Shown piece by piece: positions 4,996-63,736 of a DNA stretch of 64,000 nt. The notes beneath the pieces are model-generated. The model had not been told where the DNA came from. It worked only from the letters and a program-made list of their open reading frames with translations, and ran no database searches. The DNA comes from a virus. Lineage: Duplodnaviria > Caudoviricetes. Made by a program: the position numbers and the translations under genes. Numbering within the stretch: position 1 is the first letter of the stretch; every line of letters begins with the position of its first letter. Location: positions 192,001 through 256,000 of the IMG/VR virus record IMGVR_UViG_3300005512_000001; one strand, written 5' to 3'.

Positions 4996-5659
4996 TGTCA
5001 ATGCGTTTACAGATATTGATGAAGGCACAATTTATCTATCCCAATATCGTTATTGCAACGGTGACTTTCTAGATGTAATTGCTGATGAGATGGCCCATTT
5101 TATTTCTGGCGCAGACCATGATGAAGAATGGAAACAGACTTGCTTGCAGTCGTACGGAAAAATTCCGCCGCACAATTCTGAATTTGATAAGATAAGACGC
5201 AGGCTTGGAATACCGAGCAATATTGCGGGGAACATCGGAAATATTACTGGCATACAGCAAATTCTTACTGATTACCATCTGTTGCAGTCATATAGAAGGT
5301 TCAGTCAACGGTTATTGGGCAATGAGGGCCATTGGGAAGTTTTGGGCGATAATAAAATAAGATTGTATCCAACGCCGAAAGGTTCATTCCCTGTTACTGT
5401 TTTGTACATTCCACCTATTTCCACATGGCGTACCCCTGCCAACAAGCTACTGGCAATGGATATGCTATTGGCTGAAAGCATGATTATGTTAGGGAGCGCT
5501 AGAGGTAAGTTTAGTGGTATACCTAGCCCAGATGGTGGGTCATTGAGCTTAGATGGCGGTGACCTCAAGCAGAAAGGGCAAGAGTTGCGTGATAAAGTCA
5601 TGCAGGATGCTATCCTGCTCTCAGATGACCCATATGCTTCTGCAATTTACAGGTACTAA
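4904..5659 (+). CDS. gp13: neck protein gp13-like C-terminal part (from ~5231) preceded in frame by a degenerate SprT-like segment; start uncertain
   Basis: LGSARGKFSGIPSPDGGSLSLDGGDLKQKG is the gp13 C-terminal signature; upstream DEMAH..HDEEWK resembles SprT HExxH..H. Confidence 0.7.
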   Translation: MTTINTQTNLAHFTDASSKPRLKINLSPLTSVNAFTDIDEGTIYLSQYRYCNGDFLDVIADEMAHFISGADHDEEWKQTCLQSYGKIPPHNSEFDKIRRRLGIPSNIAGNIGNITGIQQILTDYHLLQSYRRFSQRLLGNEGHWEVLGDNKIRLYPTPKGSFPVTVLYIPPISTWRTPANKLLAMDMLLAESMIMLGSARGKFSGIPSPDGGSLSLDGGDLKQKGQELRDKVMQDAILLSDDPYASAIYRY

Positions 5660-5660
5660 T

Positions 5661-6065
5661 ATGGCTACAATTAATCGCAGATTAAATGTGATACGTGGTG
5701 ATAGGGTTCTTGTCCCAGGATGCGAGCCGACGAGTACATTGACTTCAACCAGGATGATGGCCGAGATGAACCGATTAGGATTGTGTCAATGTGCTATTGT
5801 TGATTTGGCTGATATTTTAGAGGCTATACCAGGTGCATACACTGAGTATATCCCAAATTCAGGCCATATGGGCAGTAGCAAGATATTAATTCTACCTAGT
5901 GAAGACCAAACTTGTCCATGCACCACTCATGAAGATTGGTATGAAACAATAAGAGGACTGTGCTCTGAATCAGCCACTGAGGAAGAGATTAATGAGATAC
6001 TTGGGTGTGATGCTTTTTCTATTGATCCATGTGTTACTAGGCCGCAATGGAGAGGCCAAGAATGA
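5661..6065 (+). CDS. hypothetical Cys-rich protein in neck cluster
   Basis: ATG directly after the gp13-C stop; overlaps next start. Confidence 0.55.
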   Translation: MATINRRLNVIRGDRVLVPGCEPTSTLTSTRMMAEMNRLGLCQCAIVDLADILEAIPGAYTEYIPNSGHMGSSKILILPSEDQTCPCTTHEDWYETIRGLCSESATEEEINEILGCDAFSIDPCVTRPQWRGQE

Positions 6066-6628
6066 TACACAGATTTTCAAAGTCGGCAGAGACAATCACC
6101 AGAATCGCACCAGGGCAGCAACGCATTGGGCATAGAGATGATATGTCTCAGTCTAATCCGCTTATACAATTACATGACAGCGAAAGTCTGGACCATGGTC
6201 TCGCAGGCAGTATAGCAGAAGAGATTATAAACATAAGCGGCGGCCAGGTTGTAGTATATGTTAGAACAGATAGTGAGGCATTTGATGATGTTTATGAAGA
6301 AGACCCCGACCCAACATATAAAGTTGGTAAAAGATTGAAGGCTTATTTCGTGCCGCAGCCTATCTCTGCACAACTTACACCGTGGGGGGTTGATGTTGAG
6401 AACCAAGCTACTATTGTCTTTTCGAAAGAACAAGTACGCGGTGAGTTTGGCGATAGGATGATACGGATTGGTGATGTGGTTGAGTTGCCATATAATGCGT
6501 CTGCATTGCGGCCTGATCGGTATAGAGTTTTAAATGCTTTTGACTCTGGAAACTTTAGATACAATTGGCTATATTGGAGTTGTACTGTCGAAAACCTGGC
6601 GGACGACATTACTATAGAACCAGAATGA
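6062..6628 (+). CDS. gp14: neck/head-closure protein gp14-like
   Basis: E.I.ISG..V.VY..DDVYEED, WGVD, IGDVVELP; position after gp13. Confidence 0.65.
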   Translation: MIHRFSKSAETITRIAPGQQRIGHRDDMSQSNPLIQLHDSESLDHGLAGSIAEEIINISGGQVVVYVRTDSEAFDDVYEEDPDPTYKVGKRLKAYFVPQPISAQLTPWGVDVENQATIVFSKEQVRGEFGDRMIRIGDVVELPYNASALRPDRYRVLNAFDSGNFRYNWLYWSCTVENLADDITIEPE

Positions 6629-35891: not shown

Positions 35892-36748
35892 CAACGCAGC
35901 AACTAGTCGAAGGGCTTCAAAAACTAATACATCAATATGATTGTGGCCCTAATAAGATTGCCTCTATTGAGCTTATTGGAGACGATCAAATTAGGGTCCT
36001 AGGTACTTATGGTAATGGCGATGTTTTAGATTGCAAAATCACCATGGGACCATCAATAGAAGAATCTGATGTCCCTACGGGCGAAATCACTGAGACCCAG
36101 CGGCAGGGTGTTGATGAGAGAGTTGCACGCAAGGTTAGGGTCAAAAAAGTCACGCCTCGCACCAAGAATATCGACGCGACCCCACATAGACCGGCGAATA
36201 ACGACCCCACAAAAACAAGTGTAGGCAAAGCCGCCGTTAGGCGGCAGGGGAAGAGGAACAAAGCCCATCCGGAACGGTTTGCGGAGAATAAAATCGTATC
36301 AACTGCATTTATCGAAGCTGCAATTAATGCTACACGTGGCCAAATAGTCAAAATGGCGGAAAGTATTAATCCTATTTCAGAATCTATTGCTATCAGGAAA
36401 GCTGTGGAGCAATATGGTGATGGTGATGGTAAGTTATCTAAAATAGATGAGATTATACATAATGTATGGGGTGATACTTTAATCGTGGAGTATGCTGGGA
36501 TCGCGGTAGATAAGCAGAGTGATTTGACGACTTTTGATAATGCTGCCTCGATATTAAATGAGATGAATAATTGGGGGGTGGAATTTTGTTGGATTGAACG
36601 AATTCGCAATAATAATGCGAATATTTATAAAGTCTATGGCGACACAACGCCCAGCAAAACATACAGTGAGCATAAGGGATTGTCTGATAGAGATTTAATT
36701 CTCTCTGGTGATCGTGCAAATATAATTCAAATAATTTATGGAGCTTAG
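35885..36748 (+). CDS. hypothetical protein, possible head-internal protein
   Basis: GAGG RBS; multiple hydrophobic-x-E sites. Confidence 0.55.
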   Translation: MVTTQQLVEGLQKLIHQYDCGPNKIASIELIGDDQIRVLGTYGNGDVLDCKITMGPSIEESDVPTGEITETQRQGVDERVARKVRVKKVTPRTKNIDATPHRPANNDPTKTSVGKAAVRRQGKRNKAHPERFAENKIVSTAFIEAAINATRGQIVKMAESINPISESIAIRKAVEQYGDGDGKLSKIDEIIHNVWGDTLIVEYAGIAVDKQSDLTTFDNAASILNEMNNWGVEFCWIERIRNNNANIYKVYGDTTPSKTYSEHKGLSDRDLILSGDRANIIQIIYGA

Positions 36749-36749
36749 A

Positions 36750-37940
36750 ATGTCTGATAAAGATATCCTTAAAATTGCAGAAGAAATGAATGAATTCGGC
36801 GAGCCAACGATGCCGACTAAAATCCCCGGTTATGAAATGGGCATGGGGCCTGAAGATATGGGGCCTGACACGGAGCCTGAATATGCTAGCCCAGATGGTA
36901 TTGGTATGGCACAGCAAGTTATTAGCCTTGATAAAGATTTACTTCTAGCATTGGTAAAGCTCGTGAAAGAAAAGGGGTATGAGTGCGCTGCTGACCCGGA
37001 ATGTGGTTCGATGCAAGAGGAAGATGAAGAAACTGAAACTGAGACTGAAGTTGAAGACGAAGAAGCTGAGACTGAAGGCGATGATGAAGCCGAAGATGAC
37101 GAAGACGAGACTGAAGAAGTGGATGAACAAATTAATAAAGATAAAAAGCCGGTAAATGAAGAGGCCGAAGAAGAGGCCGAAGAAGAGGCCGAAGAAGAGG
37201 CCGAAGAAGAGGCCGAAGAAGAGGCCGAAGTAAGCGACGAAGAAGTTGATGATATTGAAGATGCCGCCGAAGGCGAACTAGATCATACTGATTGCGAGCA
37301 ATTGGTTGATAAGATCGGTGAGTTGGCAATTGACGGCACCCTAACTATAGCGGACCTGCCAGAAATCAAGCAATGTTGCTTCCCGGAGCCTGAAGCGGAA
37401 GAAGCCGCTGAATTTGGTGGCGAAGAAGGCGAAGCTGAAGAAGGCGGAGACGAAGCTGTAGACGGAGACGAAGCTGTAGACGGAGACGAAGCTGTAGACG
37501 GAGATGCTGGGGAGGTTGAGGATTCTGAGGACGCCGAGGAAGGTCTCCCATTTGAATCTACTATAAAGCCAGTTGACGAGATTACTGAAGGTAAGCCGTG
37601 GGAAGATAAAGATGAGAAAGAAGAATCAGAGGAGGATGACGACAAAGAATCCGATGAGACTGATTGCGAAGCTGCTGATAAAGGCATGGGGCTAGCTGAA
37701 TCTGTCACTAAGTTTGCTGCTGGTAAAGGCATTGAAGTTGTAGTACGGTCAGCACAGAAAGATAATGGTATAGAATTCTTGAGTGATGATGAATCATTTA
37801 AAAAATTATGCGAAGCTATAAATTCAGAGTTTGATGCCATTAGTGAAGGTAAGAGCAAGGGCATAGTTGGTGCGATGAGCAAGTATGCTAGGTGCTACCC
37901 CGTAGGTGCTGCGGGACGTTTGTTCTACGTTTTTAAGTAA
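36750..37940 (+). CDS. highly acidic low-complexity protein, possible prohead core component
   Basis: E/D-rich with internal tandem repeats. Confidence 0.65.
   Translation: MSDKDILKIAEEMNEFGEPTMPTKIPGYEMGMGPEDMGPDTEPEYASPDGIGMAQQVISLDKDLLLALVKLVKEKGYECAADPECGSMQEEDEETETETEVEDEEAETEGDDEAEDDEDETEEVDEQINKDKKPVNEEAEEEAEEEAEEEAEEEAEEEAEVSDEEVDDIEDAAEGELDHTDCEQLVDKIGELAIDGTLTIADLPEIKQCCFPEPEAEEAAEFGGEEGEAEEGGDEAVDGDEAVDGDEAVDGDAGEVEDSEDAEEGLPFESTIKPVDEITEGKPWEDKDEKEESEEDDDKESDETDCEAADKGMGLAESVTKFAAGKGIEVVVRSAQKDNGIEFLSDDESFKKLCEAINSEFDAISEGKSKGIVGAMSKYARCYPVGAAGRLFYVFK
37158..37229 (+). repeat. 12-bp tandem repeat GAAGAGGCCGAA x6 (EEAE)
   Basis: Direct reading. Confidence 0.95.
37446..37504 (+). 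repeat. 18-bp tandem repeat GGAGACGAAGCTGTAGAC x3 (GDEAVD)
   Basis: Direct reading. Confidence 0.95.
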
Positions 37941-59905: not shown

Positions 59906-59981
59906 TATCACATAGGCCCGCTGTATTTAATCTGGGACAAGCCACTAAGAGCAAGAATCAGATTAAGGTTAGGAGCCTATC

Positions 59982-60713
59982 ATGCCGAAGTTATGCCAAA
60001 TCATCGCCGTCGCAACTGGCCGCAAGTCCGTCGTTCAAAAAGAGGTTACCAAGCAGCATCAGATGCTGCAAAAGCCAGCACTGCTTGATGGCATTTCGCG
60101 AACTTACACGCCTTCTGATGCAGAGGGAGAGACTTTACCTGCCGAATCGAAAAAGGTTCAGTTGAATGTTAACGATGCTATAAAGGCCGCAGCCGCTGCT
60201 TGGACCAGTATTTTTGATGTGGTCGCGACTCAAGATGCGGCGAATTGTAAGGCTTCCGCAGATGTGATTGTGGGTGGTTTTACAATTATTGAGAATGTGC
60301 CTGTTACACACTTGCTGTTCCTAGAGAAGCAGCTAGTTGATATTCATACTTTCATCGATAAACTTCCGACTCTTGATGCAGCACAAGATTGGACATATGA
60401 CGAGAACAAGGGCTGTTTCAAGACTGAGCCGACTGAGCAGATTAAGACCAAGAAGCATCAAAAGCCGGTGGTTATGTATGAAGCTACGAAGGAACATCCA
60501 GCCCAGGTCCAATTGGTAGGCGAAGATATTACTGTTGGAAAATGGACTACGGTCTATTTCTCTGGTGCGATTCCGGCCGACAAGAAGCGAGCTATGTTGG
60601 AGAAGGTACAAAAGTTGCAAGATGCTGTGAAGTTTGCCCGCGAACAAGCAAATACTATAGATGTTGAAGATGTCAAAGAAGGAGAGCAAATTTTTGAGTT
60701 TATAACCGCTTAG
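59982..60713 (+). CDS. conserved-looking uncharacterised protein (recalled as DUF7873-like), upstream of the tRNA-mimic RNA
   Basis: KL.QIIAV..G.K, GISRTY.P..EGE.LP.E...VQ, VP.T.LLFLEKQL, EAT.EHPAQV, FSGAIP, AVK.ARE.AN; AGGAG RBS; family name from memory, unverified. Confidence 0.75.
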   Translation: MPKLCQIIAVATGRKSVVQKEVTKQHQMLQKPALLDGISRTYTPSDAEGETLPAESKKVQLNVNDAIKAAAAAWTSIFDVVATQDAANCKASADVIVGGFTIIENVPVTHLLFLEKQLVDIHTFIDKLPTLDAAQDWTYDENKGCFKTEPTEQIKTKKHQKPVVMYEATKEHPAQVQLVGEDITVGKWTTVYFSGAIPADKKRAMLEKVQKLQDAVKFAREQANTIDVEDVKEGEQIFEFITA

Positions 60714-60727
60714 GCGGTTTGTGATAT

Positions 60728-61160
60728 TGGAGCGTAAGTTTAAATTTAAACTTAGATTTAAACAAAACTCCTGTGCAGGTTCGAATCCTGCCCCCGCTGT
60801 TGATGCTGTAACAACCTACTTAGCGGGGTGGCGGAATGGCAGACGCGCGGCTCCCTTATCAAGGGTCGTAGGAGTTTATTAAGTTCAAGCTATCGCTCCA
60901 GGTTTAGCAACTGTGCTGGCCATTAAATCGAGTTCTGGAGAAAACTAACTGCTTGTGTGCTTGTTCAAATCAAGCCCCTCGCGTTTCGACGCACCCAACA
61001 ACCCTGCGAGGGTAGCTCAATGGTAGAGCGTGGCAGTCTAAAACTGAAACTCCAGATTAAACGGAATCGTTAATGGTTCGAGACAGGCACTGGTAGACAT
61101 TACTATAATGATCACCAACATCGCTCCCCAGCGGGAAGGCTACGCGCTGGGGAGCCACTT
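60728..61160 (+). ncRNA. structured RNA with two circularly permuted tRNA-like domains (YrlA/Y-RNA-like topology)
   Basis: Unit 1: T-arm GCAGG-TTCGAAT-CCTGC (60775-91), CCCCGCT/AGCGGGG acceptor, D-arm TGGCGGAATGGCAGACGC. Unit 2: GCTTG-TTCAAAT-CAAGC (60959-75), CCCTCGC/GCGAGGG, TAGCTCAATGGTAGAGC. Closing stems TGGAGCG/CGCTCCA and CTGGAG/CTCCAG. Confidence 0.85.
61123..61155. terminator. GC-rich hairpin closing the RNA locus
   Basis: GCTCCCCAGCG / CGCTGGGGAGC; between RNA and convergent gene. Confidence 0.7.
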
Positions 61161-61519
61161 TATATATCTAATTCATCAGTGAATCGTTTGACGGCTTTAT
61201 CTAGGGTGGTTTTATCTGATTTACATGGCAGATTGATGCCACCCATAATACTAATTCCGGCATAAATATATCTATATATAGACCCATCATATATGATGGT
61301 CTTCACGGTAGCACGGTTTGTGTGAAGAAATTCACATTCCATTAAGAACCATATTGATTTGTAAGGGTCGTCTATCGAGTGGCTTATAGAATTGTTCCGT
61401 ACCGACACCATATTGATGACGCGGGCGTACGTTATGCGGACTGTCTTCTGCATGGGTTCTAGTGCTACATATAATCTGTGCCGATAACTATATGTATTTA
61501 AATCTCTATGGCAAGACAA
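61160..61519 (-). CDS. hypothetical, possibly distant family B; start uncertain
   Basis: SIDDP..IWFL.E..IYDGS weakly parallels family B. Confidence 0.4.
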   Translation of the reverse strand: MSCHRDLNTYSYRHRLYVALEPMQKTVRITYARVINMVSVRNNSISHSIDDPYKSIWFLMECEFLHTNRATVKTIIYDGSIYRYIYAGISIMGGINLPCKSDKTTLDKAVKRFTDELDI

Positions 61520-61966: not shown

Positions 61967-62060
61967 TAATAATATCTAGCAGTATTTAGGCAAAAGTAAT
62001 ATGGACCGATTAGCGGTCCGTGAATGCAGCAATCGGCTGCGTAGAAGAAGGAGTAGTAGA

Positions 62061-62933
62061 ATGGGAATTATTGAGAAGTTCCAGGCTGTATTGTCGATTA
62101 TTGAAGAGCACAATTCTGCAATCGGGGGCAAGGATAAACCAGGATATGTTGACCCGTCTGGTTTTGAGGACTCCATCAAGATTATTGGTGGCACCAGTGA
62201 ATCACGACTTAAAAGGCTTAGCTACGAAGACATTTTGCAATGTCTTCCTGGTTCTGGCCAGCTGAAGCCAGTCGCCTTAGCGAAGGAAATTGCTGCTGTT
62301 TTTCGGGGCAATGATGACACTAAGCGACCAATTAGTACTCACCGGGTGTCATTTATGAACCCGGAAGAATTGATTAAAGCATTTGACCCGGAAGAATACA
62401 CCAATGCTGTCGGTAAACGGCTAAAGGACATGAGTCGTGGCGAGGCATTTATTGTTTTTGAATCTGGTAGAATAGTTGATGTCGATATATCAATGAAACT
62501 GCTGAAAGAGGTAAAGCAAGGATATCGCGGAAGGGATAAAGTTTCTGTTAATGGCGATATAAAGCCAGTGTATAGAGTCGGGCAATTACCAGATGCATAT
62601 GCTGATGAGAATCCGCTATATCGCAACCGGCCTTTGAGGCCAGACGGTACTTGCGATCAGACTGGAAGGTCTTGGGACGGCATATCGCTTGAGATACGAC
62701 AGTTGGTGTATTTAGCAGTTCAAGTGGGCGATCTGAAGGTCAGTATAGAGACGGCCCATAATACAATCGACGCTGCATTAAGAGATGATGCTGTTAGATT
62801 TTTCCGCGAGCGTTATCAGAAGGCAGCAATGCGATTCAACAAGCTGCAGAGACTTAATGACCTACCGAAACTCACAGTCCCCATGAATGCTGAACATTCG
62901 ACTAGTATCAATAAAGGCACGAAAGTTTTATAA
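62061..62933 (+). CDS. hypothetical protein
   Basis: AGGAG RBS before ATG 62061; ENPLY..RPLRPDGTC..TGRSW. Confidence 0.65.
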   Translation: MGIIEKFQAVLSIIEEHNSAIGGKDKPGYVDPSGFEDSIKIIGGTSESRLKRLSYEDILQCLPGSGQLKPVALAKEIAAVFRGNDDTKRPISTHRVSFMNPEELIKAFDPEEYTNAVGKRLKDMSRGEAFIVFESGRIVDVDISMKLLKEVKQGYRGRDKVSVNGDIKPVYRVGQLPDAYADENPLYRNRPLRPDGTCDQTGRSWDGISLEIRQLVYLAVQVGDLKVSIETAHNTIDAALRDDAVRFFRERYQKAAMRFNKLQRLNDLPKLTVPMNAEHSTSINKGTKVL

Positions 62934-62941
62934 GGAAGAGA

Positions 62942-63736
62942 ATGATGACTAAGAAAGAAGACGCACTCAGAACGTATGTTGCGATTATCCTTGATAGGTC
63001 TGGGTCGATGGGTAATGACCATCATAACCCAAATCGTGTTGATATGACTATCGCTGGATTCAATGAACAAGTGCAACAGATTAAAATGAATTCTGAAGAT
63101 ATGGAGACATTTGTGTCATTAGTGACGTTTAATGGCAATGTTTATGAGCATCTTTGGAACCAGCCAGCAGCTGAATTATACGAAACTACAGCTGAAGACT
63201 ACCGACCTAGTGGCTCGACAGCCATGAGGGATGCACTTGGTTATGTAATCGAGAAGCTGCAAAAGACGACCGACATTGCTGATGAGAATAATGCTTATCT
63301 TGTGGTTGTTATCTCGGATGGTGATGATAATACATCTCATCATTATAGTATTCCAGCACTGCGTGAATTAGTGGAATCAACTAAAAAGGACGATAATTGG
63401 ACTATAACTTATATGGGTTGCAGTGAGGAATACCTTAAGGAAGTAGAAAAGCAAACTGCGATTCCAACTTCGAACATGGCTGCCTTTGACCCCTCTGCGG
63501 TAGGAATACGCAAGGGATATGCAGCTAGCGGCGGGAAAATAGGTGAGTATCTAAGAAGTCGTAAATGCGATGGCGTAAAATCGTTGGCTACATTCTACTC
63601 AGACACTGCAGGTGTGGCGGCTGATTTTACTGAGGCAGCACTTAACCATGTTGCGATTAAGGACACAATCATTGATTCGACAGCATCGAATCTTTTGGGG
63701 TCCGGAGTCGCCGTGGCCTGGGATGATGGCCAATAG
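62942..63736 (+). CDS. von Willebrand factor A domain protein
   Basis: MIDAS ILDRSGSM, T.MRDALG, ISDG..N.S. Confidence 0.9.
   Translation: MMTKKEDALRTYVAIILDRSGSMGNDHHNPNRVDMTIAGFNEQVQQIKMNSEDMETFVSLVTFNGNVYEHLWNQPAAELYETTAEDYRPSGSTAMRDALGYVIEKLQKTTDIADENNAYLVVVISDGDDNTSHHYSIPALRELVESTKKDDNWTITYMGCSEEYLKEVEKQTAIPTSNMAAFDPSAVGIRKGYAASGGKIGEYLRSRKCDGVKSLATFYSDTAGVAADFTEAALNHVAIKDTIIDSTASNLLGSGVAVAWDDGQ

Follow-up and report, generated by a model that had tools for sequence, protein, structure and literature searches.

The DUF7873 locus and its RNA

The window analysed here is a stretch of 64,000 nucleotides of viral DNA from the IMG/VR record IMGVR_UViG_3300005512_000001; it belongs to a 113-kb viral record estimated by CheckV to be 31% complete. 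Directly 3′ of a gene for a DUF7873 protein, and on the same strand, the window carries a double permuted tRNA-mimic RNA of roughly 430 nucleotides (about 60729-61156, plus strand). It contains two tRNA look-alikes in tandem, both circularly permuted and both without an anticodon. Within each of these tRNA-like heads the order of the arms is T arm, 3′ acceptor strand, loop, 5′ acceptor strand and D arm, and each head is carried on a stem made by its own flanks (P1 under head 1 and P3 under head 2). The strands flanking these closing stems hold all of the six-nucleotide units, h1 to h9, that are the subject of this report. Hexamers of the form A-R-N-Y-U-N (R, purine; Y, pyrimidine; N, any base) are the defining conserved element of the non-coding RNA that follows the DUF7873 gene. 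The gene, the two heads, the stems that carry them and the hexamer track are as follows.

59982-60713 (+): DUF7873 gene, 243 amino acids (Pfam PF25283, E = 4e-103)
60729-60734 (+): closing stem P1, 5′ strand GGAGCG, partner of 60894-60899; covariation (for example CG 39 and UA 14 at one pair)
60736-60759 (+): hexamers h1-h4, AAGTTT AAATTT AAACTT AGATTT
60760-60765 (+): degenerate fifth unit, right after h4
60766-60876 (+): tRNA-like head 1; covariation of T, acceptor and D stems
60766-60771 with 60871-60876 (+): stem P2 of head 1
60881-60892 (+): hexamers h5-h6, AAGTTC AAGCTA, opposite h1-h4 on the 3′ strand of their internal loop
60894-60899 (+): closing stem P1, 3′ strand CGCTCC; covariation
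60900-60905 (+): hexamer h7, AGGTTT, directly 3′ of P1
60906-60911 (+): half unit h8, AGCAAC
60935-61055 (+): tRNA-like head 2; covariation; the stretch with a weak YrlA match
60935-60940 with 61050-61055 (+): closing stem P3 of head 2, CTGGAG/CTCCAG
61041-61047 (+): hexamer h9, AAACTG (61041-61046), followed by a conserved A that belongs to the next unit; 3′ strand under head 2

The four exact in-phase hexamers are h1-h4, which form the 5′ strand of the large internal loop between P1 and P2; h5-h6 form its 3′ strand. The first-pass annotation of this DNA, made from the letters alone, had described A-rich, unpaired, hexamer-phased repeats between the closing stems, and the letters it quoted are found where it placed them. 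Autocorrelation in 60735-60769 is 0.66 at lag 6 and 0.70 at lag 12, set against 0.09 at lag 3, and by mononucleotide shuffles of the same segment the lag-6 value has p = 0.0007, with p = 0.003 when every lag from 2 to 10 is allowed. Strict in-phase runs (at least four units, with A1, Y4 and T5) occur at two places in the 64-kb window, where 0.16 are expected per strand: one is the tRNA-mimic RNA and the other a (Glu-Thr)n coding repeat at 37030. We set the second run aside as a Glu-rich coding repeat unrelated to the RNA hexamers. It lies in the gene for an extremely acidic protein of 400 amino acids (window 36738-37940) with (Glu-Thr)n, (Glu-Glu-Ala)n and (Asp-Gly-Asp-Glu-Ala-Val)n repeats, and the likeness of this coding repeat to the hexamer motif is by chance. 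At 60735-60754 the hexamers also build a perfect 20-nt palindrome, TAAGTTTAAATTTAAACTTA.

Conservation of the hexamers in homologous loci

We sampled 80 bacterial and 80 viral loci around relatives of DUF7873, the bacterial ones coming from six phyla (Actinomycetota, Planctomycetota, Chloroflexota, Deinococcota, Armatimonadota and Acidobacteriota). Even a plain scan for T arms places two of them about 100 and 250 nt past the gene in nearly every locus. A family hidden Markov model (HMM), trained on 50 stretches 3′ of DUF7873, matches an RNA directly 3′ of the gene in all 80 bacterial loci and in 76 of the 80 viral ones, and an nhmmer search of the window with this model returns 60701-61156 at E = 5.9e-48. 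The RNA of the window agrees with the definition of the DUF7873-associated RNA throughout: it lies 3′ of the gene on the same strand, has two heads, and has h1-h7 and h9 in place. A blastn search of the RNA against GenBank phages gave no match. In a Ktedonobacterales metagenome-assembled genome two whole copies of the RNA stand in tandem (5509-5958 and 6028-6513), about 800 nt beyond the DUF7873 gene.

Conservation of the units was scored over 147 distinct RNAs in fixed HMM columns. Over h1-h7, 91-100% of these RNAs have A at position 1 and 94-100% have U at position 5. Purines take up position 2 in about 82-98% and pyrimidines position 4 in 85-99%; positions 3 and 6 vary freely. The length of the units is held as firmly as their letters. 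At least 95% of RNAs have 6-nt units at h1, h2 and h4-h7, while h3 is 6 nt long in 86% and 7 nt long in 11%, and the h1-h4 block measures exactly 24 nt in 102 of 130 RNAs. The layout of the units is likewise fixed over the family, as four, two, one (plus a half) and one, and all units of the window occupy family HMM positions. The first-pass annotation had staked its proposal on hexamer phasing in homologous RNAs, and this phasing is present, in register and in fixed number, across the six phyla and many phages.

Most of the segments that it had picked out by eye can be placed within this family pattern. Its 6-nt units at 60735-60769 agree with the autocorrelation, the shuffles and the family columns h1-h4, those at 60880-60891 map onto the conserved h5-h6, and its consensus NARRYT is the family unit A-R-N-Y-U-N with the frame shifted by one base. 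From the three units that it had read at 61034-61051, AAACTG and the A that follows are conserved and the rest are not. AAAACT AACT at 60941-60950 is the only listed segment without a family counterpart, because the 5′ strand of the second tRNA-like unit shows no conserved hexamer. The description of the repeats as A-rich holds for this phage but not for GC-rich hosts, in which the units read AAGCUG or AGACUC.

Fold of the RNA and pairing of the units

The remaining elements of the fold, which provide the standard against which any pairing of the hexamers can be judged, are as follows.

60701-60726 (+): small hairpin around the DUF7873 stop codon, between gene and RNA (family HMM columns 9-34)
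60776-60790 (+): T arm of head 1
60792-60798 with 60822-60828 (+): closed 7-bp acceptor of head 1, AGCGGGG/CCCCGCU
60831-60846 (+): D arm of head 1
60851-60870 (+): phage-specific extra hairpin (CCCTT ATC AAGGG and flanks) between the D arm and the P2 3′ strand of head 1
60918-60926 with 61070-61078 (+): long-range helix P5; family covariation
60959-60975 (+): T arm of head 2
60976-60982 with 61006-61012 (+): acceptor of head 2, GCGAGGG/CCCUCGC
61015-61029 (+): D arm of head 2
61056-61156 (+): 3′ domain, with the conserved UUAAACG
61124-61156 (+): terminator hairpin

Covariation is strong in P1, both T arms, both acceptor stems, the D arms, P3, P5 and the terminator, and true stems in the same alignment show 95-100% pairing with mutual information (MI) of 0.4-1.5. 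Helix P5 joins the spacer between the heads to the tail beyond the conserved UUAAACG; since it covaries over this long range, the RNA is a single folded unit and not two independent mimics. The GC-rich hairpin at the position of the stop codon is conserved across the family, and it may therefore serve as an attenuator, or as the site where processing takes place between gene and RNA. Most bacterial homologues do without the extra hairpin of head 1; insertions at the same spot are seen in a few further phage RNAs.

The hexamers behave differently from these stems. No hexamer column covaries with any other column at the level of a stem, and the informative positions pair at chance. RNAalifold, run on a MAFFT alignment of 55 sequences, recovered P1 together with the three head-1 arms, while all units stayed unpaired. 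We also tried explicit pairing schemes over the family, none of which is supported: a unit-on-unit register A (h1:h6 with h2:h5; 54% paired cells), a junction-centred register B (72% paired cells), an intra-strand hairpin of the units, and pairing of h4 with h5/h6. The informative positions in the register tests are paired in 49-67% with MI of at most 0.25, so that the 72% of register B comes from its invariant A-U cells only. The minimum-energy fold of the window RNA does pair h1-h2 with h4, in an 11-bp hairpin, but this self-complementarity of the hexamers is particular to this AT-rich phage and is not conserved. The earlier description of the repeats as unpaired is thus right for the family consensus and does not extend to the minimum-energy fold of this phage. 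Taken together, a unit with two invariant positions, two that are conserved in class and do not covary, and two that are free has a pattern that, on the aligned sequences, fits read-out by a repeated ligand better than it fits a helix.

The DUF7873 protein and its mRNA leader

Among the genes around the RNA, that of DUF7873 alone is conserved; the other neighbours vary. The protein has more than 5000 homologues and is 52-66% identical across the same range as the RNA (about 55% between phage and Streptomyces). Its AF2 model (pLDDT 87) has four long helices and a sheet with a very long beta hairpin. The most conserved motif, YEATKEHPAQ, is preceded by a basic patch, KTKKHQK (together residues ~155-176, window 60444-60509), and in the model EATKEHPAQ falls at or near the tip of the predicted beta hairpin; the motif is a candidate contact surface.

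Structure and sequence searches with the protein returned little beyond its own family. Foldseek against the PDB gave nothing at E of 0.001 or below. A likeness to Cas7 was considered and dropped, the Foldseek values being E = 0.05-0.1 with a TM score of 0.11 and neither VIA-align list containing a Cas7 row. VIA-align ranks generic helical bundles and TolC highest, with Z = 7-8.5, and the TolC rows (Z about 7.5) have a root-mean-square deviation of 12-15 Å, inside the noise range stated for the tool. ESM Atlas searches returned DUF7873 itself only, a PHROGs search gave no match, and we found no account of DUF7873 or of the DUF7873-RNA pair in the literature.

The same motif recurs upstream of the gene.

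59955-59975 (+): leader units AGAATC AGATTA AGGTTA, in phase, running into the GGAG Shine-Dalgarno site

The GGAG site stands 7 nt before the ATG at 59982. Counting leaders with at least two strict in-phase units within 60 nt upstream of the gene, we find them before 14 of 63 viral DUF7873 genes (22%), compared with 6 of 159 other genes of the same loci (4%; p = 6e-5), and before 3 of 54 bacterial DUF7873 genes, compared with 9 of 1029 others (p = 0.019). An enrichment of this kind would be expected were the synthesis of DUF7873 under the control of the same factor that reads the units, and the leader units suggest autoregulation of the gene.

Comparison with known RNAs and RNA-protein machines

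Neither the window nor any of 16 homologous loci has an Rfam match at the gathering score, and ARAGORN reported 0 tRNA and no tmRNA in the window. The Rfam tRNA model reaches 14.8 bits against a cut-off of 29. With its halves in permuted order, no anticodon loop and no match from a tRNA finder, the RNA is not a tRNA. It does resemble the two-piece tmRNA, in that a permuted tRNA-like domain is joined to a stretch with triplet-compatible conservation. We nevertheless rejected a tmRNA assignment, given the absence of the alanine identity pair G3-U70 and of CCA, the loop-closed acceptors, the lack of a conserved stop and the frame-breaking indels.

The closest known system in plan is that of the YrlA-type Y RNAs of bacteria and phages, which are bound by Ro60/Rsr (Chen et al. 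2014, PMC4201824). Under a relaxed threshold the only meaningful Rfam match is that of the YrlA model RF02553 to head 2, with 28.8 bits (E = 5.8e-4) where the gathering score is 69; head 1 is not matched. The order of a T arm, a loop-closed acceptor and a D arm on a flank-formed stem is that of YrlA and is backed here by covariation, and the acceptor has 7 bp in the window RNA as it does in the YrlA of M. smegmatis. Membership of the YrlA family is nonetheless rejected on score, Ro60 linkage, Ro60-binding motif and architecture. By the description in PMC4201824, a YrlA RNA is encoded on the strand of a Ro60/TROVE gene and no more than ~4 kb from it. The 113-kb record, itself a fragment, contains no TROVE match, and two bacterial loci have no TROVE/Ro60 gene within 10 kb; TROVE is absent from three of five DUF7873-bearing genomes and distant from DUF7873 in the other two. 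The window does encode, at 62001-63736, a 310-aa protein without a family match followed by a VWA-domain protein (264 aa). A split or divergent Ro60 in these two genes was considered and rejected, as they give no TROVE signal even at E = 10. PMC4201824 also gives GNCGAAN0-1G as the Ro60-binding motif of the 5′ strand. This motif is absent from window 60701-61170, and it occurs somewhere in only 48 of 156 family RNAs without forming a conserved HMM column. Unlike YrlA, moreover, the DUF7873 RNA combines two heads and a 3′ domain in ~430 nt, has another partner gene and carries hexamer arrays. A 2026 preprint on three tRNA-mimic families concerns different RNAs, and a jumbo-phage review and a Listeria phage paper treat Ro60-linked Y RNAs only.

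For the hexamer arrays themselves the resemblances are to TRAP, CsrA and Cas7, and these are analogies, not homologies. On the trp leader of Bacillus, TRAP binds 11 G/UAG triplets, with a period of 5-6 nt, around an 11-mer ring. The DUF7873 RNA is comparable to this system, and to CsrA with its CsrB/RsmZ-type sponges, by analogy: short motifs at a fixed period on single-stranded RNA, a putative oligomeric reader, and a motif near the ribosome-binding site that in those systems gives translational control. It differs from both in motif, protein fold and context, in having few units, fixed in number and framed by stems, and in that binding is predicted. In the Cas7 backbone on crRNA there is one subunit per 6 nt, bound without sequence specificity. 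The likeness here would be confined to the 6-nt period, with the suggestion that a protein of ~27-40 kDa can pack at such a spacing.

Discussion

From the observed repeats, their conservation and layout and their co-occurrence with DUF7873, we infer protein binding, and with it the identity of the partner, the stoichiometry and autoregulation. The hexamers could well be single-stranded sites at which a protein binds repeatedly, DUF7873 being the likeliest candidate; we would give this reading about an even chance. Each unit would be read base by base, with A1 and U5 always present, a purine at position 2 and a pyrimidine at position 4, and copies of one protein, most likely DUF7873, would dock on the single-stranded units. 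If they do so, the RNA would assemble a multi-subunit particle presenting two tRNA-like heads. Surplus DUF7873 might then repress its own translation through the units beside the ribosome-binding site. Iterated sites for the adjacent gene product were also what the first-pass annotation had proposed, and the conservation pattern, the standing of DUF7873 as the sole conserved neighbour and the motif in the leader all speak for that proposal, from which the segment at 60941-60950 has to be subtracted as lying outside the pattern.

Several observations weigh against this reading. DUF7873 is near-neutral, with a median isoelectric point of 6.5, and Pfam and structure comparisons revealed no recognisable RNA-binding fold in it. 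Leader hexamers are present in a minority of loci only. In 54% of RNAs, compared with 35% in shuffles (z = 6.6), the h1/h2 and h7/h8 junctions can form 5 bp with each other, where the shuffle controls take no account of kinship between the sequences. Finally, A1 and U5 are always able to pair in antiparallel orientation, which keeps a non-canonical structure made of RNA alone under consideration.

Such an RNA-only device, which we regard as unlikely, would fix the geometry of the heads either as a periodic, mismatch-interrupted zipper of A1-U5 pairs between units on opposite strands or as a pseudoknot that spans P1. The A1-U5′ cells of register B pair in 52-55 of 55 sequences, and single-sequence partition functions give the h1/h2-h7/h8 junction (window 60738-60742 with 60904-60908; HMM columns 46-50 with 174-178) a mean pairing probability of ~0.35-0.39, so far as these sequences go a complementarity that could be a pseudoknot across P1. 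The 11-bp unit hairpin of this phage points in the same direction, but it is not conserved, the junction pairing in the window has a U-U mismatch at its centre, and the informative positions stay near chance where true stems do not. An RNA-only device would also leave unexplained both the class conservation of R2 and Y4 without covariation and the recurrence of the motif in the mRNA leader. A second alternative, about as doubtful, retains protein binding and replaces the partner: the hexamers would bind a conserved host factor such as ribosomal protein S1, the KH/S1 domains of PNPase or an endoribonuclease, and the RNA would be a sponge or a tether. The spread of one motif over six phyla and phages is what a universal partner would produce, the units beside the Shine-Dalgarno site could be translational enhancers of the S1 type, DUF7873 is not basic, and a precedent exists in the Y RNA that tethers PNPase to Ro60 (PMC4201824). 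Conservation of DUF7873 itself over the same range, and its being the sole gene that travels with the RNA, argue instead for the encoded partner. To our knowledge no host factor reads A-R-N-Y-U-N at a 6-nt period, which also counts against this alternative.

The two other explanations that we considered fare much worse. Because positions 3 and 6 are free, the units can be read as (Lys/Arg)-(Leu/Phe) repeats, as if translated in a tag frame like that of tmRNA, and this freedom has the look of codon wobble; there is no stop inside the in-phase frame, and a mechanical open reading frame of 53 codons (60721-60882) is in frame with h1. Since A-R-N and Y-U-N are never stop codons, however, an open frame follows from the motif itself. 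Insertions of one or two nucleotides in h3 occur in 16 of 130 RNAs, with the motif resuming in a new phase; no conserved stop follows the units, and the frame enters a covarying T arm. Moreover, h6 and h7 are offset by 13 nt, which puts units out of frame with each other, the motif is also found in the 5′ untranslated region, and the acceptor stems are closed by loops and lack CCA and G3-U70. We therefore hold translation of the hexamers to be very improbable. Least credible of all is that the repeats are low-complexity sequence arisen by chance, or a DNA-level repeat (from slippage, or as a transcription-factor site) in an AT-rich phage. The motif is quasi-palindromic and hence visible on both DNA strands, and the (Glu-Thr)n repeat at 37030 produced a similar run by chance. 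Against this stand per-position conservation in 147 RNAs whose GC content ranges from phage-like to actinomycete, the enclosure of the units by covarying RNA stems, and the shuffle p value of 0.003 in the window; in practice the comparative data refute it.

Within the favoured reading of the hexamers as docking sites for DUF7873, a more specific architecture may be imagined, which we put forward as a speculation with a small chance of being correct. The internal loop under head 1 would be a closed ring of six units (four plus two), clamped by P1 and P2 and wrapping a hexameric ring of DUF7873, and the complex would represent a new, Ro60-independent class of ribonucleoprotein. The long helical hairpins and the long beta hairpin of the model faintly recall half a TolC protomer, and six such halves build a barrel. 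A particle of this kind, common to bacteria and phages, would display two tRNA decoys, and the decoys might, for example, soak up or redirect tRNA-targeting nucleases or tRNA-handling enzymes in the conflict between phage and host.

A few well-understood RNA-protein machines, of which TRAP, CsrA sponges and Cascade backbones are examples, have periodic arrays of single-stranded motifs as their signature. In the present case an array of this kind is joined to two tRNA mimics and to a protein family of more than 5000 members to which no function is assigned. The hexamers offer a handle that can be mutated for finding the partner, counting the subunits and testing autoregulation, which makes a widespread and apparently undescribed RNA-protein system open to experiment in Streptomyces, Nocardia and Micromonospora. 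It would extend the idea embodied in Y RNAs, that of tRNA mimicry on a protein-binding stalk, beyond Ro60.
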